Positions 32,280 through 63,997 of a stretch of DNA of 64,000 bases are shown piece after piece; the first letter of the stretch is position 1, and each line of letters opens with the position of its first letter. The notes beneath the pieces are model-generated. The model worked only from the letters and a program-made list of their open reading frames with translations, searched no databases and was not told where the DNA came from. This stretch comes from Escherichia coli (lineage in GTDB: Bacteria; Pseudomonadota; Gammaproteobacteria; Enterobacterales; Enterobacteriaceae), in NCBI RefSeq assembly GCF_011045215.1, contig NZ_CP049201.1; one strand, written 5' to 3'. The translations under genes were made by a program, and so were the position numbers.

Positions 32280-33191
32280 ATGGAACGAAAACCCACTTTG
32301 GTTGTGGCGTTGGGCGGCAACGCATTATTGAAGCGCGGCGAACCACTGGAAGCAGAAATCCAGCGCCAGAACATTGAGTTGGCCGCCCGTACCATCGCCG
32401 GGCTCACGGTGAATTGGCGCGTGGTGTTGGTTCACGGCAACGGTCCACAGATCGGGCTGCTGGCGCTGCAGAACAGCGCCTACGACAAAGTAACCCCTTA
32501 TCCACTGGACGTTCTTGGCGCCGAAAGCCAGGGGATGATCGGCTACATGCTCCAGCAGGCGCTGAAAAACAGCCTGCCACAGCGTGAGGTGAGCGTCCTG
32601 CTTACTCAGGTGGAAGTGGACGCTACTGACCCGGCGTTCAGCAACCCGACCAAATATATCGGACCGGTGTACAACGAAGACCTGGCAAAAACACTGGCAG
32701 CAGAAAAAGGTTGGGGGTTTAAGGCCGACGGCAGCTACTTCCGTCGCGTGGTGCCATCTCCACAGCCGAAACGCATTGTCGAGAGCGATGCTATTACGGC
32801 ACTGATCCAGCGCGACCATCTTGTTATCTGCAACGGCGGCGGTGGTGTGCCAGTTGTGGAAAAGGCTAACGGCTATCGCGGAATTGAGGCGGTGATCGAC
32901 AAAGACCTCTCTGCTGCCCTGCTGGCATACCAGATAGGGGCCGACGCACTACTGATTCTCACTGATGCCGACGCGGTTTACCTCGATTGGGGCAAACCGA
33001 CCCAGCGTCCGCTAGCGCAGGTGACGCCAGAACTGCTCAGAGGCATGCAGTTTGACACCGGATCGATGGGGCCGAAAGTGGCCGCCTGCTGCAAGTTTGT
33101 TGAAGCTTGCAACGGTATTGCCGGGATCGGCGCTCTGGTCGACGGGGCTGAGATTTTGGCGGGCAAGAAAGGCACATTGATTCGTAACTGA
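32280..33191 (+). CDS. arcC: Carbamate kinase
   Basis: MERKPTLVVALGGNALLKRGE... carbamate kinase N-terminal motif; six-frame ORF extends 10 codons upstream. Confidence 0.9.
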   Translation: MERKPTLVVALGGNALLKRGEPLEAEIQRQNIELAARTIAGLTVNWRVVLVHGNGPQIGLLALQNSAYDKVTPYPLDVLGAESQGMIGYMLQQALKNSLPQREVSVLLTQVEVDATDPAFSNPTKYIGPVYNEDLAKTLAAEKGWGFKADGSYFRRVVPSPQPKRIVESDAITALIQRDHLVICNGGGGVPVVEKANGYRGIEAVIDKDLSAALLAYQIGADALLILTDADAVYLDWGKPTQRPLAQVTPELLRGMQFDTGSMGPKVAACCKFVEACNGIAGIGALVDGAEILAGKKGTLIRN

Positions 33192-33275
33192 ATCCCCCTT
33201 CACCTAACCCTCTCCTCAAAGGGGAGATGGCAGAGTGAGGGCATCAGACAGTTAAAATTTAAAAAGGATTTCCTA

Positions 33276-34280
33276 ATGACCATCAATTTGAAAAAACGCA
33301 ACTTCCTTAAACTGCTGGACTACACCCCGGCAGAGATCCAGTACCTGATCGATCTCGCGATCAAACTGAAAGCGGCCAAAAAAGCCGGACGAGAAAAACA
33401 GACCTTGGTTGGCAAAAACATTGCCCTGATTTTTGAAAAAACCTCCACCCGTACCCGCTGTGCTTTCGAAGTGGCTGCGTTCGACCAGGGGGCGCAGGTG
33501 ACCTACCTCGGCCCAGGCGGATCGCAAATCGGCCATAAAGAGTCAATGAAAGACACCGCCCGTGTGCTGGGCCGTATGTATGACGGCATCGAATACCGTG
33601 GTTACGGTCAGGCCATCGTTGAGGAGTTGGGCAAATACGCGGGCGTACCGGTGTGGAACGGTCTGACCGACGAATTTCACCCAACCCAAATCCTCGCAGA
33701 TTTGATGACCATGCTGGAACATTCCCCGGGCAAAAAACTGTCGGAACTGAGCTTTGCCTACCTTGGCGACGCACGCAACAACATGGGTAACTCCCTGATG
33801 GTGGGGGCTGCCAAAATGGGGATGGATATCCGTCTTGTAGCCCCAAAATCCTTCTGGCCGGATGTGGTGCTTGTTGAACAGTGCCGTTCCATCGCGGAAG
33901 AGACGGGCGCACGTATCACCCTGACCGATGACGTGGAAGAAGGCGTGTGGGGAACGGATTTCCTCTACACCGATGTTTGGGTCTCCATGGGTGAACCGAA
34001 AGAGGCGTGGACCGAACGCGTCAGCCTGATGAAGCCTTATCAAATCAACGCTGACGTGATGAACGCCACCGGCAACCCGAACGTCAAGTTCATGCACTGC
34101 CTGCCAGCCTTCCACAATGAGCACACCAAAGTGGGCCGAGAAATTGAGATGGCATACGGCCTGAAGGGACTGGAGGTGACGGAAGAGGTCTTCGAATCCC
34201 CTAACTCTATCGTCTTTGATGAAGCAGAAAACCGCATGCATACCATTAAAGCGGTCATGGTGGCGACACTCGGCGACTAA
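33276..34280 (+). CDS. arcB: Ornithine carbamoyltransferase (catabolic)
   Basis: STRTR carbamoyl-phosphate binding motif and HCLP motif. Confidence 0.9.
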
Positions 34281-34327
34281 TCACCACCCGGTGCGTCGTA
34301 GGGTGCACCGGGTCTCAGGAGAACATC

Positions 34328-35731
34328 ATGGGTAAGTTCAAATTTCCCTCCGCATATACCATTCTCTTTTTTCTGATTGCCATCGTTGCCGTCCTGACGT
34401 GGATCATTCCAGCCGGGCAGTATCACATGGCAATGAACGAAGCTCTCGGCAAGGAGGTTCCTGTTGCCGGCACCTATGCACACGTAGAGGCCAATCCGCA
34501 GGGACTGATTTCAGTGCTGATGGCCCCAATTGCCGGGTTGTATGATCCAGACTCCGGTCAGGCTAGGGCGATAGACGTTGCGCTGTTTATTCTGATCATC
34601 GGAGGATTCCTCGGGATCGTCACCAAAACCGGGGCCATTGACGCCGGAATCGAGCGCGTCACCACCCGACTACGTGGTCGCGAAGAGTGGATGATCCCGA
34701 TCCTTATGGCGCTGTTTGCTGCTGGCGGTACAATTTACGGCATGGCCGAAGAATCCCTGCCGTTTTATACCCTGCTGGTGCCGGTGATGTTGGCAGCACG
34801 CTTCGACCCTGTGGTAGCCGCCTCCACCGTGCTGCTCGGCGCCGGGATCGGCACGCTCGGTTCCACCATTAACCCTTTCGCGACGGTGATCGCCGCCAAT
34901 GCAGCCGGGATCCCCTTCACCAACGGTATCACCTTGCGTGTGGTGGTGCTTGTCATCGGCTGGATAATCTGCGTGACATGGGTGATGCGCTATGCCCGGA
35001 AAGTTCGCAAGGAGCCGTCTCTCTCCATTATTGCGGATAAACAAGAGGAGAACCTCGCCCACTTCCTCGGCAATAAAAGCGAACAGGCTCTGGAGTTCAC
35101 CCCGGTACGCAAAATTATTCTGGTGATTTTCGCCCTTACCTTCGCGGTCATGATCTACGGCGTGGCGGTGCTGGGTTGGTGGATGGCGGAGATCTCAACG
35201 GTATTTCTGGCCAGCGCAATTATCATCGGCCTGATCGCCCGCATGAGCGAAGAGGAACTGACCTCTACCTTTATCAACGGCGCGCGAGATTTGCTGGGCG
35301 TTGCACTGATTATCGGTATCGCGCGCGGTATCGTAGTGATCATGGATAAAGGTATGATTACCCATACTATTTTGCACTACGCCGAGGGAATGGTTACTGG
35401 ATTATCGACAGTAGCATTCATCAACGTGATGTATTGGCTGGAAGTGGTGCTGTCGTTTCTTGTGCCTTCTTCGTCCGGTCTGGCCGTTCTGACGATGCCG
35501 ATCATGGCACCTCTTGCCGACTTCGCTAACGTCAACCGCGACCTGGTAGTTACGGCTTACCAGTCTGCGTCCGGTATCGTTAACCTGATCACTCCCACCT
35601 CTGCCGTTGTGATGGGCGGACTGGCTATCGCCCACGTGCCTTACGTGCGATATCTGAAATGGGTTGCGCCGCTGCTTGGGATATTAACAGTGGTAATTAT
35701 GGTGGCATTAAGTCTGGGGGCATTGTTGTAA
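34328..35731 (+). CDS. YfcC-family membrane transporter (putative arginine/ornithine antiporter of the ADI operon)
   Basis: 467-aa polytopic membrane protein, co-directional and immediately downstream of arcB. Confidence 0.7.
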   Translation: MGKFKFPSAYTILFFLIAIVAVLTWIIPAGQYHMAMNEALGKEVPVAGTYAHVEANPQGLISVLMAPIAGLYDPDSGQARAIDVALFILIIGGFLGIVTKTGAIDAGIERVTTRLRGREEWMIPILMALFAAGGTIYGMAEESLPFYTLLVPVMLAARFDPVVAASTVLLGAGIGTLGSTINPFATVIAANAAGIPFTNGITLRVVVLVIGWIICVTWVMRYARKVRKEPSLSIIADKQEENLAHFLGNKSEQALEFTPVRKIILVIFALTFAVMIYGVAVLGWWMAEISTVFLASAIIIGLIARMSEEELTSTFINGARDLLGVALIIGIARGIVVIMDKGMITHTILHYAEGMVTGLSTVAFINVMYWLEVVLSFLVPSSSGLAVLTMPIMAPLADFANVNRDLVVTAYQSASGIVNLITPTSAVVMGGLAIAHVPYVRYLKWVAPLLGILTVVIMVALSLGALL

Positions 35732-35811
35732 TTTGCCGGATGGCGCTGCCCCTATCCGGTCTACGGAATGGTGTGGTGTCACCGGTTATTTCGAGAACTG
35801 AATATAGGATT

Positions 35812-36291
35812 ATGATGGATTACGAAGATTTCTCTCCCAAAGAGCAACTACAGCTAACGGTCTGCCAACGTCTGATTGCAGAAAAGAGCTATTTTTCCCA
35901 AGAGGAGCTCCGCCGCGACTTACAGGAGCGTGGTTTTGAGACAATCAGCCAGTCCACCGTTTCTCGTCTGCTCAAGTTGTTAGGTGTCATAAAAATTCGA
36001 AATGCCAAAGGGCTAAAAGTCTATTCGCAGAATCCACAGTTGCGTCCGGCTCCTGATGCCGCGCGCACTGTGTCCGAAATGGTGGTGAGCGTTGAGCACA
36101 ATAGAGAATTTATCCTTATCCATACCGTTGCTGGATATGGCCGCGCAGTGGCACGTGTCCTTGATTATCACCAGTTGCCAGAAATTTTAGGCGTGGTGGC
36201 CGGAAGCAGTATCGTCTGGGTCGCTCCTCGGATGGTGAAGCGTGTCGCTCTGGTGCATAAGCAAATTAATTATTTACTAAGAACGTATTAA
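35812..36291 (+). CDS. argR: ArgR-family arginine-responsive repressor
   Basis: 159 aa from MMDYEDFSPKEQLQLTVCQRLIAEKSYFSQEELRRDLQERGFETISQSTVSRLLK... winged-helix N-terminus plus C-terminal oligomerisation domain. Confidence 0.8.
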   Translation: MMDYEDFSPKEQLQLTVCQRLIAEKSYFSQEELRRDLQERGFETISQSTVSRLLKLLGVIKIRNAKGLKVYSQNPQLRPAPDAARTVSEMVVSVEHNREFILIHTVAGYGRAVARVLDYHQLPEILGVVAGSSIVWVAPRMVKRVALVHKQINYLLRTY

Positions 36292-36538
36292 TATTCACAA
36301 ATGCCCGCTTGTATTGACTAATACATACATTAAATCGCTTCATTCGCAAAGCGAGTTTCCTATAATGCCTGATAATGTGCCAGGAGGGAGCATAGTCAAG
36401 CGTGTACGATATAACGTCTCACCGCGTCTGAAATCAGACACTGGCTTGGTGTTTTATTCCCGTTGCTTAATCTATTCCTTGGGTCCCTCATTTGAGGGGC
36501 TTTTTTTGCTCGGCATCAGGAGATAAACATGAATCCGT

Positions 36539-36688
36539 TTTATCAAAAAATAAATGCCCCTAGCCGCGAAGTGCTGGAGCTCGTTCTAAAAATCGCAGCA
36601 AAAATTGAAAACCATTCCTCAACCATCGCGGCGTTCGTATGCGCCGCCAATGATGCGCCCGAAAACGCGTCAATATGAGTTCGCCGGA
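36539..36688 (+). CDS. Small ORF (49 aa, MNPFYQKINAPSREVLELVLKIAAKIENHSS...) with strong RBS; speculative
   Basis: aggagataaacATG; its 3' end is the sequence that is repeated at 36946..37016 and 27975..28024. Confidence 0.25.
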
Positions 36689-36874
36689 ATATTACTCTGC
36701 TGTCGGGAGTTGAACGCCTGACGACAGGAAATGAGCCAGGCCAGCCACCACGCGGGCTGACAGCGAATCAGAACCTGAGTCAGCCCGGAGCCATTCCCGG
36801 GGCTGCACTTCATCACCTGCCACCAGTACCCGTGTCAGTACTTCGCGACCTGACGCAATTATCCGACTCAGTCC

Positions 36875-37003
36875 TTCAGAACCCGCCTCCGATACCAGCC
36901 TGGCGCTCGCCCCTGCGCAAGCAAAATAAATCAACCATTGTCAGACTGCGATCATTCGTATGCACCGCCGATGACGCGCCCGAAAACGCGTCAATATGAG
37001 TTC
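36875..37003. repeat. Direct repeat copy B, partner at 27908..28024; embedded in a block of sub-repeats (36655..37040)
   Basis: Same sequence as copy A; cgcccgaaaacgcgtcaatatgagttcgccggaatattac occurs at 36655 and 36975, with tatgagttcgccggaatattac again at 37021. Confidence 0.7.
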
Positions 37004-37064
37004 GCCGGAATATTACTCAATATGAGTTCGCCGGAATATTACGCCTAGCTGGGGGTTTTCTGTG

Positions 37065-37095
37065 CACAAAAAAATCCCGGCATAATGGCCGGGAT
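37065..37095 (-). terminator. Rho-independent terminator after cdiI (end of cdiBCAI operon)
   Basis: Hairpin atcccggc-ataatg-gccgggat preceded on plus strand by A-run (T-run on the transcribed minus strand). Confidence 0.6.
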
Positions 37096-37110
37096 TTGCG
37101 AGCTTTCCCA

Positions 37111-37485
37111 CTATTTCTTGATTCCTAAACGGAACATATCAGTTGGGAATAAAGGTTGTATTATCACTTCATCATTAAAAATGAATAATTTGGGCGATAA
37201 AGCTGTTACGTCATAGATATTTTCAGCGATTAATCTTAGATTTGACCTAAAAACTGGAATACTTGCATCATCTACAAAGACAAACATGTCATCGTTTTTT
37301 ACAGAGTTTGCACACAATAGCTCATCAAAACTCTCATAATCAGAATGCCAGATCTCTGACCAAGTAACACTTCCTTTCGCGAGAGGGTACTTATTTAAAA
37401 TGCCCAGAGCCTCCTGCTGAGCCAGCCCCTCTACTATATTAAAATCAGCACTCAGTGCTTCCCGACACTCATCAAATAAAGTCAT
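37111..37485 (-). CDS. cdiI: CdiI immunity protein cognate to the CdiA C-terminal toxin
   Basis: 124-aa ORF starting 6 nt after the cdiA stop; AT-rich relative to cdiA. Confidence 0.7.
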   Translation of the reverse strand: MTLFDECREALSADFNIVEGLAQQEALGILNKYPLAKGSVTWSEIWHSDYESFDELLCANSVKNDDMFVFVDDASIPVFRSNLRLIAENIYDVTALSPKLFIFNDEVIIQPLFPTDMFRLGIKK

Positions 37486-37490
37486 TTGCT

Positions 37491-40400
37491 CTACCTGTTT
37501 AGCTGTTTCAATATTGTTTCAAAAGACTTTTCATTGCCTTCAAAAGGTATGACTTGCTTCACCGCTTTTCCAGGGCCTTTACCCTGCGAGTAATCCCATA
37601 TATTGATGTGTGTGCCTTTTTCAGGATCATAATCAACACGCCAACCAACTTTTCCGTCGCTGGATTGCCGCCCTATGACTTTCCCATTACCAGCGCTGAC
37701 TTCCAAACGTCCGATAACTGGCTTAGAGTCCGCTCCTAAATTACCTACAAGATCCAATGCCTTGTTTCGAGCAGTTTCCCAGTTTTTCTCTGGCTTGAGG
37801 ATTTGTTCAATTTTAGGCTGGGAATTCCCTTTAACCTTACTAATTCCCCCAAATGCTGACGCCGCAGCGCTCGCGACTATTCCCGCCTGAACTTCATCCA
37901 AACCGTATTCTTCTTGGAGTGCTTCCGAGACTTTGTTGGTCGCGACAACCCCTTCAGCCTGCATTTGCTGCGCAAAAGTCGCCGTCAGATCGTAGACCAT
38001 TTTGATCGGGATATCTTCACCCAGAGCACGATCTATTGCCTGCTTCACCGCCAGACTGTCAGTCAGTACATCACCGTATTTCTGCTGGCAGGTTGCCGGG
38101 CTGGCTGCACAGTCACTGATCAGTTGCTTTTGCTGTGCCGTACTCAACTCTTCGTACTTTTTGATAATACCGCCGCAGTCACCGCCTTTCGCCTGACAGG
38201 ACTTCATTTCAGCGGACCAAGCATCTATCTGCTTACTGCTCAGATAGTTATTCTCAACAGTTGTCTTACCTGACTGTGCGCCGGCTACCGCTGAAGCCCC
38301 CGAGTCTCCCACCAGACCACCGGCCAGGCCGGCAGCAACCGTTGCCAGTGTCGAGACCGTCTGCTTCTCTGTCTCGCTCAGTTCACTCACCGGCTTACCG
38401 TACATCTGTGTGGCTATCATTCCCACCACCTCGCCGGTGGCTGCACCTGCAGCACCGGCAAGGGCATTCTTACCCTGTGCCAGAGACAGGGCGGCATTCA
38501 CTACTGCATGAGCTGCCACACGCCCCGCACCGTCCGGGGTGGTCTGTTTGATAATTTCAGCAATATACGGCGCTGCACCACCTGCCAGGGCTGCACTCAG
38601 ATTACCGCCGGCCAGTCCCTGTACCGCTGCCGTTGCGGCCTGTATCGCCTGCTGGTATTTGCCTCCCGTTCCAAAACCGGAGGCTGCCATACCGTTATTG
38701 TAGGCCCGCTGTGCCACATCCTGTTCCGTGTACGGTTTTCCTGCTGCCTCAAGCTCTGCGCGGGCCTGATTCAGTGCTGCCGGGTCCCGCTTCGCTTTCT
38801 CACCGGCTATCTGTCCTTCCGTTCTGGCAATATCTGCCACCTGGTTACCAATCTCACCAATGAGTTGCGCCTGCTGCAACCGCTGCTGCTCTTTTTCCCT
38901 GTCAAAGATGGGGGACAGCGTCTGGTTTGCATGCGCAACGTCACGGTTCAGGTCTGCCACATCCTGTTTCTGGCTCTGTGTATCCCGGATAGTGATATTC
39001 CCGGCAGACACAGCCGACTGCGTGGTACTGTCCGCATGGCCTTCATGATTTGCACCGACCAGCAGATTGTTTGCCATGTTCCCCAGGAAATTTCCGGCAA
39101 CACTGCCACCGGTACTGAGCCCTGCACTCTGATGTTCCGTTTTAAAGTCAGCCCGGTTTTCAGTGTCACTGAAGCCCAGTGTGCCGGTATCCAGCCTGTT
39201 TTTATCTGCCGTTGCCGTGGACGCAATCACCGCACCGTTCAGTTGCGTATGCTGTCCGGTGGTGACATCAAACCCGCCCCTGCCGGCAAAAATCCCCGTC
39301 TGCTCCTGTACACTGTCGTAGTTACTGTGCATTTTATCCCGGCTGAGGTTCACACTCGCCGAACCGCTCATGGACCCGAAAGTGAAGCTGCCTCCGGCGC
39401 TGGCATTCTGCTGCTTACTGTCATAACGGTCACTGTCCTGCTCACTGGTCAGTGTCAGATGACGACCGGCATCCACTTTCACCGTTTCACCGCCAGCCTG
39501 CGCGCCGGTAAGCGTGGTGTCCCGCCCGCTGATAATGGTCAGCCGGTTTCCCGCATCCACCGTGGTTTCTGTATGGGTGGTACCGTTGCCTTTTTCACTG
39601 CCCTTACCCTGGTTTGCGCTGGCTGACAGACTGAAACCAGGCCCTCCGGGCCCCACACCGATACCGACACCCACGCTGCCACCACTGGATGTGTTCTTTC
39701 CTTCCAGCTTTGACGTGTTTTCTGCTGATACCAGATTCACGTCACGGTTTGCCTGCAGCAGAACGTTGTTCCCGGCCTTTATCTGACCGCCCTGTATCGT
39801 CAGGTCACCATCCACGCCCTTCACGCCGGAGCCGGTGGCCTGAATACTGAGGTTATTACCTGCGGTCAGTGTACTGCCCTTCGCCACCGTCTGCTCTGAC
39901 TGCTGTTCTGATTTCGAAGACTGGCTGCCGTAAGAGAGGCTGATACCCACGGTATTGTTATTCTCTTTCTGGTTGCCCTGTGCTTCTGCCAGTCGTCCGG
40001 CCTGCACGGCCTGAGCCCCCGAGAGCGCGGCCTTCACCCCCTGCAGGGCTTCAAGCCGGCTGTTTCCGGCAGATTTCGCCGCCTGTACGGTCTCCACCGT
40101 CGTGTTCAGGGCGCTGCCCGCTGTGCCGGACAGGGCAAGCGTCAGACCGGAGGTTTTCTGCTCCACCGTATGTGTCTGCACATGCCGGTCAGTGGCGGCG
40201 GTAATGCTGACCTCCTTACCACTGAGTGCCATGTCCCTGCCGGCAATCAGGTCAGAGCCGTTGACGGTCAACCGGTTACCTGCCTGAAGGGAAACATCAC
40301 CGTGAACACTCCCCACCGTGCTGCCTTTCTGCGTGGTGTCTGTTGCGGTGTCCGTGACCTTCAGACTCTGGCTGCCCACGCTGAATCCCACACCTCCGGA

Positions 40401-43400
40401 GCTCATCAGTCCGGATTTTTTCTCCTGTTTCAGGTGTGTTTCACGGTTGCTTTCTGTCAGCGTTCCGATACTCAGGTTATTTCCGGCAGCCAGGGAGACA
40501 CGGTTATCCCCGGCCACACTGCTGCCCGTGACGTTCAGATTATGTCCGGCACCGATACTGACCGTATCCCCGTTCAGTTCACTGCCCGTCATGGTCCGGC
40601 GGTCAGTGACATCATGCGTGGTAGTGGTGGTTTTCGATAACATCCCGCTGTTGCCGGTCACTTTATGGTATTCATCCAGCGAGCGGGTATTCTGTGCACC
40701 GGTCAGCGTCACGTCATGACCCGCCATCAGGGCCAGGCCTTTCTGAGCTGACAGCGATGCCGCCTGTGACGTCATATCCCGTCCGGCGGTCAGCGTGACA
40801 TCACCGTTACCGGCAAGTGTGCTGCCCGTATTCTGTGTGACGCCCTGCGACAGACGATTATTTTTATCCCAGGTAATATTGTCCTGCGCGGATGTGGTCA
40901 CCGTGGAAAGCGTCATATCCCTGCCGGCACTGAGTTGTGTCAGGCTGTCCTTACCCTGATTCACCACCGTTGCCGCCGTCAGATTCATATCCCGTCCGGC
41001 CTGCAGCACCAGTCTTCCCTGGTCGTTCTGCACATACACGCCGGCCACACTGTCGATACTGGTACGTTCAAAATGGTTCTGCCCGGCGTCGCGCTGTGCC
41101 GTACGGGTGGTGGTGGTCAGACTGATATCCCGTCCGGCCATCGCCAGCAGGCTGTCCGTGGCCTGCAGCAGCCCGCCGGTACTGTTAATATCCGTCCGGG
41201 CCGTCAGGCTGACATTTGCTCCCTGAATGGTGCCGGCCTGGTTGTGAATGTTTTCTGCACTGAGCTGCACGGCCTGCTTCCCGGCCAGTTTACCGCTGTT
41301 AAACAGGTCACCATCCAGCTTCATCACCATGTCCCTGCCGGCAATCAGCGCACCGGCACTGTTCACATCACCGGGTTTTACACGGGCATACACCTGAGGT
41401 ACCTGAACCGTCTGCGTGCTGCCGTCCGGCAGTGTCACCGTGGTGTTAACCAGCCAGACAATATCACCGGTCAGTAACGCCATCTGCTCAGCAGTCAGCG
41501 CCACACCTGGTGTCAGGTTGTATTGCTTACCAAATGCAATACCCGCATCCATTAACGCCTTAAACTGCTCTTCATCATTACTGTATCCGTCCAGGTACCG
41601 TTGCCCGGTCAGAGCGACAACCTGCTCACGAATCAGACGCTGTTCGTAAAAACCATCCCCCAGGCGTTTGAGCATGTTATCCCCGTTCTGAGAAAACGCC
41701 TTCTGCATGTAATCACTGCCCAGCCACGTCTTCTGGTTCGTAAAACGCGGGTCCGTTTCAACCAGATATGGCACATTCACTGCCGGATTTGTTTTAAACA
41801 GGCTGCTGTCCGGCAGACGGGTATCCGGCCCGGCAACATGGATACTGCCCTGAGGTGCGCTGACTTCAAACTGCTGCCCCGGCAACAGAATGACCGGTTC
41901 ACCGGCTGACACCACCGGGCGAAGCGGTATCCGGTCAGTAACGGCTACTGTCGCATCCACATTTCCGGTCAGTCCTGTCTGTACATCCGTTCCCTGTGGC
42001 TTCAGGGGAGAAAGCGTGACCTGGCTGCCCTGAACCTGTCCGTGGCTGGTGAGCTCTCCCGGCTTCAGCGTGATGGTCTGAATGACGGGGGGCGGCTCGT
42101 AAGGGGAAATTCTTTCCCCCTGCCTGTCATTTTTATTTTTTCTTTTTATCCGGTAATAATATGTGGATGTCCCTTTATCAGTAACATGGCGCTCTCCGCT
42201 GACACTGACGTTTTCCACATCACCGGCCTGCATATCCAGCAGACCACCTGCAACCACCTGGCTCTTGTCATTAAGCAGTTTGTCTGCCACAACCGTCATG
42301 CCGGCACCGGACAGTATTTTCCCCGGGTCGGAGTCTTTTACCCGGGTTTCCTCCACGGTACGGGTGTATTCATATTTTGTGAACCGGTCGTTGTTATGTC
42401 CGGTATCATCCGGCGTGTTCAGGTTCAGCAGTCCATCAGAGGAGTTGTTATCAATGAACACCCCCTCATCTTTTGCATTCCAGCGGACATCTGACCCGCG
42501 ATGCTGATACTCAGTCACCTTTTCCGTGGAGACCACCACGCGCTCCGTGGTGAAATGGTCATTGACGTTATTGATTTGCCCGGCACTCAGTGTCAGGGAA
42601 CCGGCGGCTTCAATCGTGGCACTGTGATTATTCAGTACACCGGCTTTCCCCGTGGCGGCGCCATTCGCATCCAGCATGCCACCGATATGCATATCACCTG
42701 CACTGTAAATCAGGCTGTGCGTCCGGTTATTCAGGGTCTGTACCCCCAGGTCCACACGCTCACGTCCGGCCAGCGTCGCCGCCACGCCATTTTCATCCAG
42801 ATTATTAAATGTGGCAGCGCTGACACCAACAGCATCGCCGTAGATTCGCCCGGTACCGGAATTCGTCAGGGTGTTCGCCTGAAGATGCGTATATTTCCCG
42901 TCAATCAGCCCACGGTTCAGCAGTGTGTCCGTCACGTTAAGCCAGGTCTGCCCGGCACTGATTTCACCTTTCTCTGTGTTTTCAAGGCGGATGCTGTTCA
43001 GGTCAAGCCGGCTGCCTGCCAGCAGGCTGCCGGTATTAGAGACATCGCCATTAACGGAAAGCGTAAGGTTTCCGTTTGCAATGGTCTGACCACTGTTACT
43101 GAACGCTGTGTTACTTTTCAGCGTTATATCGCCCGGCGAAAGCAGTTTCCCGTCACCACCAAGCTGACCGACATCCACAGAGACTGACTGCCCGGCCTTA
43201 ACCACGCCGTCACGGTTCGAAAACGCCAGCTGACGGCCACTGACAGACAATGTCGCGCCGGAAGAGAGCACGCCATCATTATTACTGAGCGTCCTGTCTG
43301 CCATAACCGTAAGCGCCCTGTCTGCCAGAATACTGCCCTCCTGGTTATCAAGGTCCTGCGTCGTGATGTGTATTGTCTGCGCTTCCAGCCCCTGGCCGGT

Positions 43401-46400
43401 ATTCTGCGTGTGGCGATTGATAAACTGCAGGGCGTTCAGCGTAATGGCAGAACCACTGCGAATCAGACCAGAGACGTTGTCCACAACGCCCCGTACACTG
43501 TCGAACAGAATGTCGCCCACAGACTGTATCTGTCCGTGGCTGTTCTGCAGGCCTCCCGTATGCAGACGGAGTTCACCTTCACTGACCAGCCGGCCACCCT
43601 CACGGTTATCCAGCGAGGTGGTGCTCAGGTCAGCTGTCGTTTTCGCCCCCACGGTCCCGCCCCGGTTATCCATTGCTCCGGTACTGACAGTCAGTTCCTG
43701 CAGGCTGTTCAGCGTACCCCCTCTGTTATCCAGCGTCCGGCCTGCGCTATTAATGCTGATGCCTTTCCCCTGAATAAGACCGGACTGATTGTTCAGCGCC
43801 AGACTGTTCCGGCCGGGCAGACCGGTCGCCACAATCTGACCATTCGCCACCACCTGACCGGATGTATTGTTAACCACGCCTGCAGTCAGGGACAGCGCAT
43901 CTCCCGACAAAAGCACACCGGCAGTGCTGTCCAGTGTGCCGGCATTCAGCGTCATCGGGCCCTGACTGATAACCCCGCCCCGGTCACCACTGTTACGGTT
44001 GCTCAGTGTGTCAGCACGGAGATTCAGTGTGGCACCGCTCTGTATCAGACCACCTGCATCATTGCTGATATCCGTCGAGGAAAGGGTCAGTGACTGCTGT
44101 GCCACCAGTCTGCCGCCCTGATTATCAGAGCGGGTGACATCCAGCCTGCTGTTACCGTTGCTGACCACCGTCCCCTGCTGATTTTCCAGCACATTCAGGT
44201 GCGCATTCAGGTCCCCGCCGGCGGCAAGCGTCCCTTCCTGATTACTGACATCGCCACCACTCAGCAACATATCCGTCCCGGCCTTCAGTGCGCCTTTCTG
44301 GTTCATCAGCGTACCTGACGATATCTGTAATGACGCCTGACTCCCCAGCACGCCCTGACGGTTATCGAGCGTTCCGGCGTTCAGGGTCATATCCTTCTGA
44401 CCCGCCATAAATCCCTGCTGGTTATTCAGCATACCGGCCCGTACTGTCAGGGTACCGGCGCTGCTGATACCACCCCGTGTTTTCGTGTTCCGGTTACTGA
44501 GAACCCCGTCCTGTACATCCAGCGTCATGTCACTGCCGGACTGAATCAGACCATCATCAGAGACCAGTTCGCTGCCTGACACAGACAGCGTTTTCTGTGA
44601 AAGCAGTCTGCCGGACGTATTATCCAGCGCACCATCCAGCGTCACGGACAGCCCGTCAGACACCACCGTACCCTGGTGGTTATTCAGACTCCCTGCCGAA
44701 ATATCCAGCCTGCCGGCGGACTCCATTCGTCCCTCAGTATTGCTGACAGCCTGCTGTGTTTTTATCCTGCCCGTTCCGGCAGCAGCTGAAATCAGTCCGT
44801 TGTCGTTATTCAGTGCCTGTGTATTAATCAGGATGTCACGGCTGGCAATCAGACTTCCCTGCTGGTTATCCACGGCGCCGGTTGTCCTCACCTGCAGACT
44901 ACCTGACTGCGCCGCCTGCACTTTCCCCCTGCGATTATCAAGGCTCAGTGCATCCAGGCGCACCGCGCCATTTGCCGCAAGCAGCCCTTCCCGGTTATCC
45001 ACACCTCCCGGCAGGTTCAGTGAAAAATCCCCTGTTCCCGTCTGAATCAGTTTACCCCTGTGGTTTGACAGGCTCTGTGCTGATATCTGCAGTGTGTCGG
45101 CATTTATCGTGCCGTCATTATTGCTGAACTGCCCGGCAGTCCGGGCGGAAAGCGTACCGGCACTCAGTTGCGCATTTTGCGTGAACAGATTTCCGCTGCC
45201 TGCATCCAGCTCAGTATGTTGTCCCTGTATCCGGCTGTTGCTTAAATCCAGCCCCTGCCCCTTCAGTTGCATGTCCCCACCGGACAGAACCTGTCCGTGT
45301 GCCGCCAGTTCGCCGGTGGTACTGACAGTCAGGTTGCCCGCTGCCGCCAGACGTCCGTCATCTTTCACCCCGGCGGCCAGCAGACTCCGCTCACCGCCGG
45401 TCAGACGCGCTGTCTGAATCCGGGTGTTGCGACGTGATGCCACAGAGCCTGTATGGGTGAATACACCATCACTCTGTATCTGCGTATCCTGCCCCGCATA
45501 AACAGAACCACTGTTATGCAGCTCCCGGGTTGTCACCAGATGCACATCCGTTTTCGCACTGATACTGCCACTGTTTTCAATTCGTCCGTCAGCCGTCAGG
45601 GTAACCGCCCCTGCCTGCGCACCAATATGACCGGCGTTACGAACACCCACCCCCGTTTCCGTACCGACAAGGCGAATTTTTCCGGCATACATTCCACCAA
45701 GGCTGGACACATCCAGCGCCACCTGTGGCTGCGAAGAGGCATCAGCGGCTTTTTTCTCAGTCTGCCCGTGTGCAATATCCACATTGTTACGTCCGGTGGT
45801 CACTTTCAGGTCCTGCGCCCAGATACCCGCATTAATCTTCACAGACCGGGCAATGATATCGGTATAATCCGTGCGCGAGGCATCCATCCCTTTGCCCGTA
45901 ATCTGAATCTCACCACGTTCAACACTGAATCCGGTCAGACTGCCGTTTTTCATCTGAGGCTGCCCCGTGGTCAGCGTGGCCCGGTTCGCATTAATAAAAC
46001 CGCACCCGTCGCAACTGATGCCGGCCGGGTTCGCAATCACCACCTGCGCCTTTTTCCCGGCAACCTCAACAAAACCGTTCAACTGGCTGGGATTGCGACT
46101 GTTCACTTCATTAAGAATGATTCGGGCCTCTCCCTTCGCCAGCCACGGGTTACCGGCAACCATGCCGCCCAGTTGGGTCTGCACATTTTTATGCGAGTTA
46201 TTCAGAATGACACCCTGATGACTGACATCAAACTGACTGTAAGTATTGTGCGATACCCCACCTGCAGAAGGTGTCTGGATATTGACCTGAGGAATGCCGC
46301 TGGCTGTCTGCGTAATCGTGGGCTGCTGATGCCCCGGTGCGCCATGGTCTGCGACAATGCCTGCAGCACTGACAGAATGCACCATCCCCGAGGCCAGCCA

Positions 46401-46565
46401 CAGGGAGAATGCAAGCGATGTGACACGGCAGATACGTTGCCTGCGTGGATATCCTGTACGGGAGGAGGGTGATGCACCGGCGCGACCGGAACGGGCAATA
46501 TCTGCCACCACCATCAGCATTCCCCGGGCTTTGTTAAAAATAATGCGGTAACAATTTTTGTTCAT
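37491..46565 (-). CDS. cdiA: CdiA contact-dependent growth inhibition exoprotein (two-partner secretion TpsA), 3024 aa; CT toxin 37494..38246 after VENN at 38247..38258
   Basis: Extended signal peptide MNKNCYRIIFNKARGMLMVVADIA, TPS domain, long hemagglutinin-type repeats, VENN motif (TTVENNYLSSKQ) 251 codons before the stop. Confidence 0.9.
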   Translation of the reverse strand: MNKNCYRIIFNKARGMLMVVADIARSGRAGASPSSRTGYPRRQRICRVTSLAFSLWLASGMVHSVSAAGIVADHGAPGHQQPTITQTASGIPQVNIQTPSAGGVSHNTYSQFDVSHQGVILNNSHKNVQTQLGGMVAGNPWLAKGEARIILNEVNSRNPSQLNGFVEVAGKKAQVVIANPAGISCDGCGFINANRATLTTGQPQMKNGSLTGFSVERGEIQITGKGMDASRTDYTDIIARSVKINAGIWAQDLKVTTGRNNVDIAHGQTEKKAADASSQPQVALDVSSLGGMYAGKIRLVGTETGVGVRNAGHIGAQAGAVTLTADGRIENSGSISAKTDVHLVTTRELHNSGSVYAGQDTQIQSDGVFTHTGSVASRRNTRIQTARLTGGERSLLAAGVKDDGRLAAAGNLTVSTTGELAAHGQVLSGGDMQLKGQGLDLSNSRIQGQHTELDAGSGNLFTQNAQLSAGTLSARTAGQFSNNDGTINADTLQISAQSLSNHRGKLIQTGTGDFSLNLPGGVDNREGLLAANGAVRLDALSLDNRRGKVQAAQSGSLQVRTTGAVDNQQGSLIASRDILINTQALNNDNGLISAAAGTGRIKTQQAVSNTEGRMESAGRLDISAGSLNNHQGTVVSDGLSVTLDGALDNTSGRLLSQKTLSVSGSELVSDDGLIQSGSDMTLDVQDGVLSNRNTKTRGGISSAGTLTVRAGMLNNQQGFMAGQKDMTLNAGTLDNRQGVLGSQASLQISSGTLMNQKGALKAGTDMLLSGGDVSNQEGTLAAGGDLNAHLNVLENQQGTVVSNGNSRLDVTRSDNQGGRLVAQQSLTLSSTDISNDAGGLIQSGATLNLRADTLSNRNSGDRGGVISQGPMTLNAGTLDSTAGVLLSGDALSLTAGVVNNTSGQVVANGQIVATGLPGRNSLALNNQSGLIQGKGISINSAGRTLDNRGGTLNSLQELTVSTGAMDNRGGTVGAKTTADLSTTSLDNREGGRLVSEGELRLHTGGLQNSHGQIQSVGDILFDSVRGVVDNVSGLIRSGSAITLNALQFINRHTQNTGQGLEAQTIHITTQDLDNQEGSILADRALTVMADRTLSNNDGVLSSGATLSVSGRQLAFSNRDGVVKAGQSVSVDVGQLGGDGKLLSPGDITLKSNTAFSNSGQTIANGNLTLSVNGDVSNTGSLLAGSRLDLNSIRLENTEKGEISAGQTWLNVTDTLLNRGLIDGKYTHLQANTLTNSGTGRIYGDAVGVSAATFNNLDENGVAATLAGRERVDLGVQTLNNRTHSLIYSAGDMHIGGMLDANGAATGKAGVLNNHSATIEAAGSLTLSAGQINNVNDHFTTERVVVSTEKVTEYQHRGSDVRWNAKDEGVFIDNNSSDGLLNLNTPDDTGHNNDRFTKYEYTRTVEETRVKDSDPGKILSGAGMTVVADKLLNDKSQVVAGGLLDMQAGDVENVSVSGERHVTDKGTSTYYYRIKRKNKNDRQGERISPYEPPPVIQTITLKPGELTSHGQVQGSQVTLSPLKPQGTDVQTGLTGNVDATVAVTDRIPLRPVVSAGEPVILLPGQQFEVSAPQGSIHVAGPDTRLPDSSLFKTNPAVNVPYLVETDPRFTNQKTWLGSDYMQKAFSQNGDNMLKRLGDGFYEQRLIREQVVALTGQRYLDGYSNDEEQFKALMDAGIAFGKQYNLTPGVALTAEQMALLTGDIVWLVNTTVTLPDGSTQTVQVPQVYARVKPGDVNSAGALIAGRDMVMKLDGDLFNSGKLAGKQAVQLSAENIHNQAGTIQGANVSLTARTDINSTGGLLQATDSLLAMAGRDISLTTTTRTAQRDAGQNHFERTSIDSVAGVYVQNDQGRLVLQAGRDMNLTAATVVNQGKDSLTQLSAGRDMTLSTVTTSAQDNITWDKNNRLSQGVTQNTGSTLAGNGDVTLTAGRDMTSQAASLSAQKGLALMAGHDVTLTGAQNTRSLDEYHKVTGNSGMLSKTTTTTHDVTDRRTMTGSELNGDTVSIGAGHNLNVTGSSVAGDNRVSLAAGNNLSIGTLTESNRETHLKQEKKSGLMSSGGVGFSVGSQSLKVTDTATDTTQKGSTVGSVHGDVSLQAGNRLTVNGSDLIAGRDMALSGKEVSITAATDRHVQTHTVEQKTSGLTLALSGTAGSALNTTVETVQAAKSAGNSRLEALQGVKAALSGAQAVQAGRLAEAQGNQKENNNTVGISLSYGSQSSKSEQQSEQTVAKGSTLTAGNNLSIQATGSGVKGVDGDLTIQGGQIKAGNNVLLQANRDVNLVSAENTSKLEGKNTSSGGSVGVGIGVGPGGPGFSLSASANQGKGSEKGNGTTHTETTVDAGNRLTIISGRDTTLTGAQAGGETVKVDAGRHLTLTSEQDSDRYDSKQQNASAGGSFTFGSMSGSASVNLSRDKMHSNYDSVQEQTGIFAGRGGFDVTTGQHTQLNGAVIASTATADKNRLDTGTLGFSDTENRADFKTEHQSAGLSTGGSVAGNFLGNMANNLLVGANHEGHADSTTQSAVSAGNITIRDTQSQKQDVADLNRDVAHANQTLSPIFDREKEQQRLQQAQLIGEIGNQVADIARTEGQIAGEKAKRDPAALNQARAELEAAGKPYTEQDVAQRAYNNGMAASGFGTGGKYQQAIQAATAAVQGLAGGNLSAALAGGAAPYIAEIIKQTTPDGAGRVAAHAVVNAALSLAQGKNALAGAAGAATGEVVGMIATQMYGKPVSELSETEKQTVSTLATVAAGLAGGLVGDSGASAVAGAQSGKTTVENNYLSSKQIDAWSAEMKSCQAKGGDCGGIIKKYEELSTAQQKQLISDCAASPATCQQKYGDVLTDSLAVKQAIDRALGEDIPIKMVYDLTATFAQQMQAEGVVATNKVSEALQEEYGLDEVQAGIVASAAASAFGGISKVKGNSQPKIEQILKPEKNWETARNKALDLVGNLGADSKPVIGRLEVSAGNGKVIGRQSSDGKVGWRVDYDPEKGTHINIWDYSQGKGPGKAVKQVIPFEGNEKSFETILKQLNR

Positions 46566-60730: not shown

Positions 60731-61933
60731 TTATTTATTCACAATTTGAGACATCACATAATCCGCCCATGCCTGCATCATCGGTACACGCTGCTCCAGT
60801 AGATCAGTGCGATGATATGCCGCCTCAACCTTATTTTTCAGCGTATGAGCGAGCGCCCTTTCCGCCAGATCCCGCGAATACCCCTGTTCACTACACCAGT
60901 CCCTGAATGTTGAGCGAAAACCATGTGCCGTGGCAACTCGCCCCGGAATGTCACTGACGGCTTTCTTTTTACGCAGAAAACTTGTCAACACCATATCGGA
61001 AAGGATCTGCTGCTTTCTGGGTGAAGGGAACACCAGTTCATCATGCAGGCCACGTATATTTTCCAGAATGTAAATAGCCTGCCGGGATAAAGGAACACGA
61101 TGCTGTAGCCTAGCTTTCATTCTTTCTGCAGGTATAGTCCATACCCGCTTATGAAAATCAATTTCAGCCCAGCGCATTCCCCTGGCTTCGCCCGAGCGAG
61201 TTGCTGTAAGTATCACCATTAATAACAGTGCGCGGGTAACATTATAAGGTTCATCACTATACACACTGGTCGCCACAAAAAGCGGTAACTGCCTCCAGGG
61301 CATTGCGGGTTGGTGTTCATCACGTCCTCTTGTCTGCTGAGGAAGCAAATGGTCAACCACATCAACAGGATTTGCCACACAAAAACCGTGCGCCCATCCC
61401 CACTGCATAACAACATGAATGCGCTGTTTAACCCGGCTTGCCGTTTCTGACAAGGTTAACCAGACTGGACGCAATGTTTCTGCCACGTCCGCAGCCGTAA
61501 TCGAATCCAGCGTTTTTGCTCCCAGTTGAGGAAACGCGTAATTCTCAAGCGTCGATAACCACTGCCTTACATGCTTTGGATTTTCCCATCCAGGAGACAG
61601 TTCTGCATGTACACGCCTGGCTGCATCGGCAAATGTTGGGATAACGACTTTCTCAGATTCAGCCTTTTTAATCTCCAGAGGATCATCACCTGCAGCAAGT
61701 TGCTCTCGCATTATCCGGGCAGTACGTGCAGCTTCAGCAATACTGACCTCTGGGTAAGTTCCCAATCCAGCATTACGTCTTTTTTGTGTCACCGGACTTA
61801 CATAACGAAAAACCCATTTCCCCCGCCCCTTTACTGAAGAAGGATGAAGGGTCAGTCCGGTAATTCCCCCATGGGGCAATGGTTTGTCATCAGGTTTGAT
61901 ATGTCTTGCTTTCGTATCCGTCAATACTGCCAT
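60731..61933 (-). CDS. P4-type tyrosine integrase
   Basis: 400-aa ORF with catalytic R...HxxR...Y core (ATAHGFRSTFRDW; C-terminal tyrosine region) adjacent to the tRNA-3'-end repeat. Confidence 0.9.
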   Translation of the reverse strand: MAVLTDTKARHIKPDDKPLPHGGITGLTLHPSSVKGRGKWVFRYVSPVTQKRRNAGLGTYPEVSIAEAARTARIMREQLAAGDDPLEIKKAESEKVVIPTFADAARRVHAELSPGWENPKHVRQWLSTLENYAFPQLGAKTLDSITAADVAETLRPVWLTLSETASRVKQRIHVVMQWGWAHGFCVANPVDVVDHLLPQQTRGRDEHQPAMPWRQLPLFVATSVYSDEPYNVTRALLLMVILTATRSGEARGMRWAEIDFHKRVWTIPAERMKARLQHRVPLSRQAIYILENIRGLHDELVFPSPRKQQILSDMVLTSFLRKKKAVSDIPGRVATAHGFRSTFRDWCSEQGYSRDLAERALAHTLKNKVEAAYHRTDLLEQRVPMMQAWADYVMSQIVNK

Positions 61934-62090: not shown

Positions 62091-62107
62091 GGTCCCCCTC
62101 ACCGCCA
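62091..62107. repeat. Direct repeat of the serX 3' end (island distal att site)
   Basis: ggtccccctcaccgcca; ccccctcaccgcca matches serX 3' end at 3502..3515. Confidence 0.8.
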
Positions 62108-62149
62108 TATTTAAATAAATATCCTCCGGCATAGCCGGAGGTTTTTCAA

Positions 62150-62870
62150 ATGCGCCTATAAGGCTCTCTTACCAGCCGCGCCCTAACAGGCGCACACGAT
62201 CTGACATTTGCATCCAACTTCGTTACTTACGGCCCGTAAACGGGCTGCCCGGATAGGGAATCGATAACTGCTCTCCCATTTCATCCTCTTCAAGCTGGTG
62301 CTTTATGTAATCCTGTATCTTCGCCGTGTTCTTACCCACCGTATCGACGTAGTACCCTCTGCACCAGAACTCCCTGTTCCTGTATTTGAATTTCAAATCC
62401 CCAAACTGCTCATAAAGCATCAGACTGCTTTTCCCTTTCAGATATCCCATAAAGCCGGATACGCTCATTTTGGGCGGGATCTCCACAAGCATATGGATAT
62501 GATCTGCACAGCATTCAGCTTCAAGAATCCGTACGCTTTTCCACTCACACAGCTTTCTCAAAATACTGCCTATTGCTCTACGCTTCTCTCTGTAGAACAC
62601 TTGTCTTCGGTATTTTGGCGCAAAAACTATGTGATATTTACAGTTCCATCGGGTGTGCGCTAAGCTCTTTTCGTTCCCCATTGGGACCCCCTTTTGATTT
62701 CTTGTTTGACACTTGCAGTTGCCAGACCGCAAGGTGTTTTAACAAATCAAAAGGGGTTTTAATAACTGGCTCAAAGCTGAAAGCTTTCCGGAACCCCCAG
62801 CCTAGCTGGGGGTTTTCTGTGCACAAGAAGAGCCCGTACGAAAGTACGGGCTTTTTTTTCGTATATTGCA
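62150..62870 (-). mobile_element. IS200-family insertion sequence (approximate ends)
   Basis: Contains a Y1 HUH transposase gene and a hairpin agcccgtac-gaaa-gtacgggct followed by T-run at 62831..62861; ends estimated from typical ~0.7 kb size. Confidence 0.7.
62223..62681 (-). CDS. tnpA: IS200 transposase TnpA (HUH Y1 family)
   Basis: MGNEKSLAHTRWNCKYHIVFAPKYRRQ...ADHIHMLVEIPP... near-identical to recalled IS200 TnpA. Confidence 0.9.
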   Translation of the reverse strand: MGNEKSLAHTRWNCKYHIVFAPKYRRQVFYREKRRAIGSILRKLCEWKSVRILEAECCADHIHMLVEIPPKMSVSGFMGYLKGKSSLMLYEQFGDLKFKYRNREFWCRGYYVDTVGKNTAKIQDYIKHQLEEDEMGEQLSIPYPGSPFTGRK

Positions 62871-63010: not shown

Positions 63011-63997
63011 TCACTTATTAAAATGCCCCCAACGGAAATACATGTCACATGCCATCATAAAATCGTTATGCCAGAGGAACCGACAATGGAAAAAATAGTA
63101 AATTAAGCACGGTACATAGCAGAGTAAAAAATAGGCTTCAAACCAAATCCGCCATTCCACAAGCGTTGCCAATACCGACACCAGCGTAATCCACATCACT
63201 TCAATAACCAGCAATATGAATAACCGAAGCCAAAGCGGCTTGGCAAAAAAGGTCGACAACGCATTTTCACTGGAGAAAAACAGATCGATTTCCTGCAAAA
63301 AAAGCCTGCCCAGAAAAGCGTACCGCTTGGAGAAGCGCAGAAAAAACAGATTAATCGCCAACACTACGCCACAAAGAATGAGCAATGCAATTATCGATTT
63401 AAACGTTAACCACTGCCCCTCTGTCACAAAAGAGTTACTGTTACGCAACGGGCTGATAGTAAGCAGGTTAACAACCGTTGAGATACAAACCGAAAGCAGC
63501 ACATAGCGAGTCAGACTTTTATATTTTACTTTTTTCGCTACTGAAATAGCGACCTGCTTGACATAACTGGTGCGGATCATCCGAAACAACAGAAAGATGA
63601 CCAACGGCCCAAGTAACGAAATCAGGAACAGCGCATATAACGAGGGTAGAAGCTGGTATAGCCCCCAACTCATTGCACTCAACATGATTAACGACAGAAA
63701 TCCTGCCACCAGAGGTTGTGTAAGAAATAATTCTATTTTGTGGTTCTGCTTTTTCTTAAACCACGAAAAATCGATATTCTTCGTGACGCATTTATAAGCC
63801 CAGTACGCCTTGAGATCAAAAATAAAATTATACAGCACCAGGGCCAGAATCCCACTAACTACACCAATATCCTCTGATGGAAAAGTAAACCCTGCATTTT
63901 TCCAATAAAAGCCTATCAGAATAAGTCCAATAGCATAAATGTATATCAGATTTCGTTTATCCTGAAAGCGAATAAAAGTTAAATAATCAGGAATCAT
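63011..63997 (-). CDS. ycdU: Inner membrane protein YcdU
   Basis: 328-aa multi-TM ORF; K-12 neighbour of serX on the side opposite ghrA. Confidence 0.75.

Follow-up and report, generated by a model that had tools for sequence, protein, structure and literature searches.

A probable pair of separate IS200 insertions at two terminators in Escherichia coli: one intact, one reduced to a 25-nt scar

We consider it very probable that the 64-kb stretch of Escherichia coli DNA analysed here (the window, i.e., the whole stretch at its full length of 64,000 nt) records two separate IS200 insertions, one of them intact at the edge of a genomic island and the other reduced to a scar behind the CDI immunity gene cdiI, where an IS66-family element cut it. 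All components of this arrangement are of known kinds, and both sites are explained by known transposon behaviour.

The two sites share a 27-bp segment, gcctagctgggggttttctgtgcacaa, which a first-pass annotation made from the sequence alone had pointed out. The segment is indeed exact and present twice, although the positions given for it at that time (37044..37070 and 62803..62830) were wrong by 1-4 nt. It has exactly two copies in the 64-kb window, both on the plus strand (37043..37069 and 62800..62826), and no third copy was found there at up to three mismatches; 100 dinucleotide-preserving shuffles gave a chance expectation of 0 matches, and a local blast search with the whole element as query returned no other IS200 piece from the window. 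The 27-mer consists of IS200 nt 1-25 plus the invariant TT of the target, which stands before the element.

An intact IS200C between attR and ycdU

The element at the island edge is a complete IS200C-type insertion sequence (Table 1). The earlier description of an "apparently intact IS200", lying between the att repeat (62094..62107) and ycdU (63011..63997, minus strand), holds in both respects: the transposase is a full-length Y1_Tnp, and the two subterminal hairpins are present, as is the STnc490 5'UTR; only its limits, previously given as 62150..62870, are replaced by 62114..62824. The transposase matches the Pfam Y1_Tnp profile with 130.7 bits (E 3.8e-38; profile positions 2-121 of 121) and is homologous to the solved structures 2EC2 (E 3.5e-23), 2F4F, 2VHG, 2A6M of IS608 and 2XM3 of ISDra2, with an HIH motif that aligns; the ORF list contains no second long, supported ORF within the element. 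Upstream of tnpA, the Rfam family RF01405 (STnc490) is matched over model positions 1-124 of 124 with 146.4 bits against a gathering score of 56 (E 6.3e-30). Both subterminal hairpins are far more stable than expected, the LE folding at -15.5 kcal/mol (z -3.75; none of 200 shuffles as good) and the RE at -15.7 kcal/mol (z -4.14), and the two ends of the element, GTGCACAG... and ...ATATTTATT, are not inverted repeats of each other. The sole Y1 gene, the subterminal hairpins, the lack of a target duplication and STnc490 place the element in the IS200 group of the IS200/IS605 family, and RefSeq copies that are 99% identical carry the label "IS200/IS605-like element IS200C family transposase".

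The limits of the element were derived from an unoccupied site and from the divergence of the flanks. E. coli O157:H7 Z1833 has the same integrase and ycdU with the site unoccupied, reading catatttaaa/gaagagc (slashes mark junctions throughout; in full, ...caccgccatatttaaa/gaagagctcgtacg...), and comparison of the empty with the filled site gives a 711-bp insert and no target duplication, with a 2-nt (aa) ambiguity. Across 34 independent sites, the RE is conserved through ...GGAGGATATTTATT and the flanks diverge beyond it; at the other end, 115 independent flanks (among the matches listed) put the LE limit at ...TT/GTGCACAG, the element starting with GTGCAC and TT always standing before it. 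Taken together, the 34 RE and 115 LE flanks settle the 2-nt ambiguity, and thus the element occupies 62114..62824 on the minus strand. Its left end is read here as (TT)GTGCACAGAAAACCCCCAGCTAGGC; empty sites alone leave the 2-nt ambiguity, and it is conservation, along with the analogy to IS608, that indicates that the TT probably belongs to the target and not to the element.

Table 1. Positions of the features discussed, in window coordinates, with the basis of each assignment
Feature	Position	Strand	Basis or remark
tRNA-Ser(GGA)	3428..3515		ARAGORN and alignment
Third IS66-family right-end fragment, 62 bp, truncating the start of a pyrB-like gene	36634..36695	+	repeat family D1, exact IRR match
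IS66-family right-end fragment, 321 bp, ending in a second, tandem 26-bp IRR (36991..37016)	36696..37016	+	repeat search
IS66-family IRR, terminal 26 bp, ...GAGTTCGCCGGAATATTAC	37017..37042	+	tip at 37042 abuts the stub
IS200 LE stub, IS nt 1-25	37043..37067	-	100% identical (25/25) to 62800..62824
cdiI intrinsic terminator, AAATCCCGGCCATTATGCCGGGA then T7 (minus strand)	37068..37097	-	sequence and fold
cdiI, CDI immunity gene	37111..37485	-	ORF list; RefSeq "CDI toxin immunity protein" in 115 genomes
cdiA	37491..46565		
Integrase ORF, just inside the island	60731..61933		
att repeat (attR) ccccctcaccgcca, serX-type island	62094..62107	+	equals the 3' end of tRNA-Ser(GGA)
IS200C-type insertion sequence, complete, 711 bp	62114..62824	-	LE at 62824, RE at 62114; empty site and flank divergence
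9-nt RE tail ATATTTATT, 3' of the RE hairpin	62114..62122	-	conserved in 34 sites
IS200 RE subterminal hairpin CCTCCGGC-TAT-GCCGGAGG	62123..62141	-	fold; conserved in 34 independent copies
tnpA, 152-aa Y1 (HUH) single-strand DNA transposase, ORF intact	62223..62681	-	ORF list, Pfam
tnpA 5'UTR / STnc490 (art200 region) structured RNA	62691..62814	-	Rfam RF01405
IS200 LE subterminal hairpin AACCCCCAGC-TAG-GCTGGGGGTT, IS nt 11-33	62792..62814	-	fold
Target of the intact IS200: hairpin GCCCGTAC-TTTC-GTACGGGC then TCTTCTT	62825..62859		read on the minus strand
ycdU	63011..63997	-	

The intact copy lies 6 bp beyond the att repeat, outside the island, and abuts an old tRNA terminator. Read on the plus strand, the target hairpin (62832..62851) is followed by T8 and represents the terminator that originally stood downstream of the att site of tRNA-Ser; it folds at -10.4 kcal/mol (z -4.84), its sequence is uninterrupted in O157:H7, and the junction of the LE with this hairpin occurs in 16 of 5,426 complete E. 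coli genomes. The corrected limits put a live IS200 between the island attR and the original tRNA terminator. From the homology of TnpA to the IS608 and ISDra2 transposases, the window IS200 is expected to move by single-strand peel-and-paste, i.e., IS200C would travel as single-stranded DNA, with TnpA binding the LE and RE hairpins and inserting the element 3' of a short target. The strand into which the intact copy inserted is the bottom one of the old tRNA-Ser terminator hairpin. IS200 has been reported to be nearly dormant (PMC4513863).

The stub behind cdiI and the IS66-family tip beside it

The second copy of the 27-mer had been placed just downstream of cdiI, and this is correct; it stands directly after the T-run of the cdiI terminator hairpin. 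The last TT of this terminator (37068..37069) is the IS200 target dinucleotide and completes the shared 27-mer; the stub is thus preceded by a target TT and a terminator hairpin, as are 115 genuine LE junctions (among the matches listed). The IS200 part of the 27-mer comprises the 10-nt tip of the element, the 5' arm of the LE hairpin, its 3-nt loop and 2 nt of the 3' arm. What is left of the LE hairpin at cdiI is therefore one arm, the loop and those 2 nt, and no RE accompanies them. Since it is without a TnpA-binding hairpin, without an RE and unable to fold, the stub is an immobile, non-functional scar for which no function is expected.

Related strains show the same junction with more IS200 attached. 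This cdiI is carried by 115 E. coli genomes, and the points at which these lose their match with the window fall into discrete classes. In MP1 and YD786 the cdiI terminator is unoccupied (in both strains, ...gatgcgcAAAAAAAtcccggc... and ...gatgatgcgcAAAAAAAtcccggcataatggccggga...), and the O157 strain 644-PT8 is likewise IS200-free at this place. 33F4 carries an IS200 that is nearly complete: it has lost ~105 bp internally, close to the RE, and contains a frameshift. Its LE joins the terminator at exactly the nucleotide of the stub. In STEC1585 an 86-bp LE remnant is cut by the IRR tip of ISEc23, an IS66-family element, and in C311 the 25-nt stub abuts a complete IS66-family element with tnpA, tnpB and tnpC. 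In the window and in two mip270 genomes the stub abuts IS66 fragments only. More than 30 genomes match the window from the first base of the stub into cdiI, and among 5,426 genomes the stub occurs with the tandem IRR in 2 and with a single IRR in 5. This graded series of junctions in sister strains indicates that the stub did not originate as an element of its own but is left over from an old IS200 insertion, which bears out the suggestion of a solo IS200 end: the 27-mer comprises the first 25 nt of the LE, counted from its tip, plus 2 target nt, and 33F4 and STEC1585 carry more of the IS200 at the identical junction. The RE-side flank in 33F4 differs from the unoccupied sites, hence rearrangement has affected the 33F4 copy too; none of the cdiI-junction classes shows the true filled site of the ancestor.

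On its other side, the stub ends where IS66-family sequence begins, the break falling in the loop region of the LE hairpin, after the loop and 2 nt. The 321-bp fragment is ~91-92% identical to the IS66-family right end of O157:H7 SpLE1 and of plasmids, and a "pyrBI operon leader peptide" is annotated upstream of the 62-bp fragment in RefSeq genomes. A complete copy on plasmid pZ1323CEC0009-2 has an IRL (GTAATGTTCCGGGG...), an IRR (...CCGGAATATTAC) and tnpA/tnpB/tnpC, and its ends read tcatcagc/GTAATGTTCCGGGGAACTCAT... and ...ATGAGTTCGCCGGAATATTAC/tcatcagc, with an 8-bp duplication, TCATCAGC. IS66 membership is apparent in the complete relative (locus L007) from an IRL and IRR alike at 22 of 26 positions, ends that begin with GTAA, the duplication TCATCAGC and the three genes. 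Given the matching ends and the duplication of the complete copy, the right end of an IS66-family element truly terminates at position 37042. For the sequence left of the stub, an origin as a group IIC intron or as the end of a MITE had also been considered; both were ruled out by the complete IS66-family copy with its IRL, IRR and 8-bp duplication. The IRL of the O157 SpLE1 copy, which is interrupted and rearranged, was not found at up to three mismatches. That the fragment ends at an exact IS66-family inverted-repeat tip had escaped the first-pass annotation.

The window contains IRR-side fragments only, with no IS66 IRL, no IS66 transposase genes and nothing of the remaining body of the cut IS200. 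A reciprocal junction of IS200 body with IS66 IRL, bearing the predicted 8-bp duplication, was sought in 5,426 E. coli genomes, none of which had a match extending over 80% or more of the query; moreover, the complete IS66 element of C311 has no flanking duplication. Hence a later IS66-associated deletion or recombination has to be inferred. We propose the following course. The older IS200, oriented like cdiI, would have inserted right behind the T-run of the cdiI terminator. An IS66-family element would then have transposed into the loop of the LE hairpin, which joined the tip of the IS66 right inverted repeat to IS200 nt 25. The later IS66-associated event presumably removed the remaining 686 bp of IS200 together with most of the IS66 element, and would have left behind IS200 nt 1-25, three IS66 right-end fragments and the untouched cdiI terminator. 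The same junction would also result from an adjacent deletion that IS66 mediated and that stopped at the IRR tip.

Three other origins of the stub were weighed against this course. The stub could have arisen by a spontaneous internal deletion or illegitimate recombination of IS200, with the adjoining IS66 sequence there by coincidence. Internal deletion of the IS200 at the cdiI site does occur, as the ~105 bp lost near the RE in 33F4 attest, and the region around the site is full of IS debris; yet the break falls, to the nucleotide, at the outer limit of an inverted repeat that is verified as IS66-family, a complete IS66 element stands at that very junction in C311, and in STEC1585 the same IS200 is cut at a different position by another IS66-family IRR tip, that of ISEc23. 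We therefore regard a coincidental deletion as improbable, and cutting by the IS66-family element remains the preferred reading.

Even less credit is due to the two readings in which the stub is an element in its own right. The first-pass annotation had offered, next to the solo end, a shared structured element, and the 27-mer might accordingly be a structured or regulatory element (part of a terminator, or an sRNA) common to IS200 and the 3' region of cdiI. Both copies do adjoin terminator hairpins, and the full LE hairpin is itself a terminator, but the 27-mer contains one hairpin arm only and folds alone at 0 kcal/mol, a value that 200 of 200 shuffles at least equal, and Rfam matched nothing at 37043..37069. 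Furthermore, related strains have contiguous IS200 at the cdiI junction, and at 115 other sites (among the matches listed) the sequence is always the start of an IS200, whole or cut by another IS. The proposed structured element thus finds hardly any room. The stub might instead be a mobilisable miniature IS200 (PATE- or MITE-like) brought to the cdiI terminator by TnpA acting in trans, and it does sit at a perfect IS200 target of hairpin and T-run, while in other genomes many terminators likewise have a solo LE tip beside them. However, the stub has neither an RE nor a complete LE hairpin, and TnpA binding in this family requires both, as established for IS608 and ISDra2; every recurrent solo tip elsewhere is explained by IS4 or IS4-derived elements in the hairpin loop, with the other half of the IS200 on the far side; and sister strains carry longer IS200 pieces at the same junction. 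A miniature element is accordingly scarcely credible, and we retain the reading of an older IS200 cut by an IS66-family element.

Intrinsic terminators as IS200 targets

That both IS200 sites of the window lie at terminators follows from the target of IS200, which inserts immediately 3' of a hairpin with TTNTT behind it. In the orientation of the element, the two LE flanks read gcccgtactttcgtacgggcTCTTCTT/GTGCAC and atcccggccattatgccgggaTTTTTTT/GTGCAC. We scanned for LE tips in one genome per species, which gave 32 loci, and in metagenome contigs, which gave at least 120 loci, and called a flank terminator-like when a hairpin of -8 kcal/mol or below ended at most 10 nt from the junction and at least 5 of the last 8 nt were T. 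All 32 distinct flanks of the genome scan were terminator-like, compared with 6.6% of random positions ending in TT, and so were 108 of the 115 distinct pooled flanks (among the matches listed), compared with 23% of T-rich control positions; the other 7 of the 115 (again among the matches listed) mostly have the hairpin but fewer T's. Over the 115 flanks (among the matches listed), the consensus at positions -5 to -1 is T(98%) T(92%) N T(100%) T(100%), and this TTNTT target has the same form as the right end of the element itself, TTATT. The target of IS200 here is a G+C-rich hairpin followed by TTNTT, in other words an intrinsic terminator. The location of the two sites at terminators as an outcome of IS200's own target choice had been missed by the first-pass annotation.

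Stem-loops resembling rho-independent terminators were reportedly noted next to IS1541 by Odaert and co-workers in 1998. In full-text literature searches, a hairpin-plus-TTNTT target was nowhere stated explicitly for IS200. A 2025 preprint (10.1101/2025.07.22.666184) describes a statistical association of terminator-like sequences with the upstream side of ISs, most marked for IS200/IS605, and a Yersinia IS1541 lies between pheL and pheA, just after an attenuator (PMC3082878). For IS608, a short guide 5' of each hairpin pairs with the cleavage site (Barabas et al., 2008). GAAAA precedes both IS200 hairpins; it is complementary to the T-rich cleavage sites, which by the IS608 rule makes it a plausible guide.

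Hairpin loops, related elements and what the sites are good for

IS200 ends are cut by other insertion sequences as well. In the metagenome and genome samples, recurrent LE tips are cut at the same hairpin loop by ends reading GTAATGCC..., and these ends are IS4. One such locus (L140) holds a 1,425-bp IS4 that is 100% identical to the IS4 of CFT073 and is flanked by an 11-bp duplication, cagctaggctg; an IS66-like MITE, considered as a source of the GTAATGCC... ends, was ruled out by this identity. The loop of the IS200 RE hairpin is also cut by IS4 ends, and in E. coli 2/0, AR_0067, M16807 and DA33137 the IS4 coordinates abut matches to the LE-body part of IS200. A Citrobacter contig has an IS50-like end at the same LE loop, and at another locus (L122) a 145-bp IS4-derived miniature element sits in an ordinary terminator hairpin, with a 12-bp duplication. 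Break points were detected without gaps, many apparent breaks being small indels, and only the recurrent class at nt 27 was interpreted.

The target of IS4 is pseudo-palindromic (AAA-N20-TTT, with an 11-13-bp duplication), and the recurrent IS4 cuts in IS200 loops fit such a target. It is tempting, if still rather doubtful, to take IS200 hairpin loops for preferred landing sites of other transposons (IS4, its miniature derivative, IS50-like and IS66-family elements), in which case the IS66 insertion in the window would have been targeted and not a matter of chance. Were this so, 25-27-nt IS200 tips beside terminators would form a predictable and widespread class of scars, produced by a nested chain from terminator to IS200 to IS4 or IS66, in which IS200 once appears again, after a terminator-like hairpin inside an IS4 end. 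The occurrence of IS4 in IS200 hairpin loops offers a second rule for spotting IS200 remnants in enterobacterial genomes.

In its make-up, the window element agrees with IS200/IS200C of Salmonella and E. coli and with its relative IS1541 of Yersinia in the length of ~710 bp, the single 152-aa Y1/HUH tnpA, the STnc490 5'UTR, the RE hairpin and the lack of inverted repeats and of target duplication, and nothing essential differs: the Salmonella IS200 is quoted at 707 bp versus 711 bp here, and the LE hairpin occupies nt 11-33 here versus nt 12-34 for the bidirectional LE terminator described for IS200 (PMC4513863). With IS608 and ISDra2 it has in common a homologous TnpA, subterminal hairpins, insertion 3' of a short target that abuts the LE, and a target resembling the RE cleavage site (here TTNTT versus TTATT). 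Those two elements differ in carrying tnpB, in their targets, TTAC or TTGAT, and in having no hairpin requirement, whereas the window IS200 has no tnpB and IS200 sites have a G+C-rich hairpin immediately 5' of the target. The sequence that cuts the stub has the right inverted repeat of the IS66 family, to which ISEc23 belongs, as does an unnamed relative in O157 SpLE1 and on F-type plasmids, but the window holds right-end fragments only (62, 321 and 26 bp), and the terminal 26 bp occur twice in tandem. IS4 (insG) resembles it in cutting the IS200 LE in the same hairpin loop and leaving a short tip by a terminator; unlike the IS66-family sequence, IS4 is absent from the stub of the window, and its duplications, of 11-12 bp, have the loop at their centre. 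The break at the IS66-family tip lies 1-2 nt from the IS4 position and would give an 8-bp duplication.

IS200, IS66-family elements and IS scars are textbook objects, and as a discovery the present findings carry little weight; their value is mainly for annotation, through the stub as a marker, the corrected limits of the intact element and the junction rule. The 25-nt stub marks an ancient IS200 insertion behind cdiBAI and is usable as a marker of the island lineage. The sequence of hairpin, TTNTT and then LE (108 of 115 flanks, among the matches listed) provides a compact rule for recognising IS200 junctions and remnants in enterobacterial genomes.

The IS200 target site and insertions in hairpin loops

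Among the matches listed for the one-genome-per-species scan and the metagenome contigs (L013-L164), a G+C-rich hairpin followed by TTNTT was located directly 5' of the IS200 left end (LE) in 108 of the 115 distinct flanks, compared with 23% for the same terminator-like feature at T-rich control positions. The hairpin and TTNTT preceding the LE constitute an intrinsic terminator, and IS200 is co-oriented with the terminated transcript. Moreover, the right end (RE) of the element, TTATT, has the same form as the target TTNTT, and GAAAA precedes both IS200 hairpins.

Hairpin loops were entered by IS4 (insG) and by a 145-bp IS4-derived miniature element, the targets being the LE and RE loops of IS200 and an ordinary terminator; the duplications at these insertions were 11-12 bp long, with the loop at their centre. 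The reverse nesting was found as well, with IS200 lying directly after a terminator-like hairpin within an IS4 end (L130, about 154..195). Additionally, the IS200 LE loop of a Citrobacter contig (L024) was cut by an IS50-like end.

Coordinates of features in the window and of IS4-type insertions at comparison loci
Feature	Coordinates	Remark
Genes encoding a type I restriction R subunit and an M48 peptidase	window 23840..27651	
ISEc23-like right inverted repeat (IRR)	window 27760..27819	border of additional segment
IS66-family end fragment	window 27900..28011	border of additional segment
pyrL-like leader peptide with attenuator hairpin, and pyrB-like gene start	window 36314..36634	
IS66-family IRR end, third copy	window 36670..36695	
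IS66-family IRR end, tandem duplicate	window 36991..37042	
IS102 RNA (RF00124) match	window 14647..14883 (-)	
IS4-type hairpin-loop cases	L140 75..1499; L122 7366..7510; L156	genomes: E. coli 2/0, AR_0067, M16807, DA33137

The cdiI terminator and its flanking DNA

In strain 33F4 (L002 2425..2445), the cdiI-adjacent IS200 has lost about 105 bp internally, close to its right end. The right-end flank of this copy (...ctgtttctgat) does not match that of the unoccupied MP1 and YD786 sites (L009 and L003; ...gatgatgcgc), and therefore the ancestral filled site at cdiI was not recovered from the comparison of 33F4 with these two strains. Part of the cdiI terminator hairpin has been lost from O157 644-PT8 (aaaaaaaatcccggcatttgcgag; L012 1485..1515); 45 bp upstream of this hairpin there is an IS66-family right end. 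The restriction and peptidase genes of that strain are only about 470 bp from cdiI, whereas the window contains about 9.4 kb of additional DNA between them (27650..37110 compared).

The additional segment includes arginine-catabolism-like genes and is bordered by IS66-family debris. A 62-bp end fragment of the IS66 family truncates the pyrB-like gene, which retains only its first ~35 codons (MNPFYQK...). In matching genomes, a 'pyrBI operon leader peptide' is annotated by RefSeq at the pyrL-like site. Genes for an ArgR-like protein and a YfcC-type transporter are located upstream of the leader and the pyrB-like gene. In the window, the outermost 26 bp of the IS66-family IRR occur as a tandem duplicate, with a third copy 321 bp upstream. 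Such right-end duplications, differing in length, recur in plasmid pCFSAN004179G (22 bp; L006 2248..2295) and in O157:H7 SpLE1 (about 150 bp; L005 237..412).

The tRNA-Ser(GGA) terminator and a putative further island element

Since the island integrated, the terminator-like hairpin that follows tRNA-Ser(GGA) is a different one, supplied by the island (gcgcatgttattgtttaacatgcgcttttttatttt; tRNA gene and hairpin within window 3428..3560), and the original terminator of the tRNA gene is now found at 62832..62859, beyond attR (62094..62107) and IS200. Elsewhere in the island, the Rfam match to IS102 RNA (74.4 bits) points to a putative element of the IS903/IS102 type.
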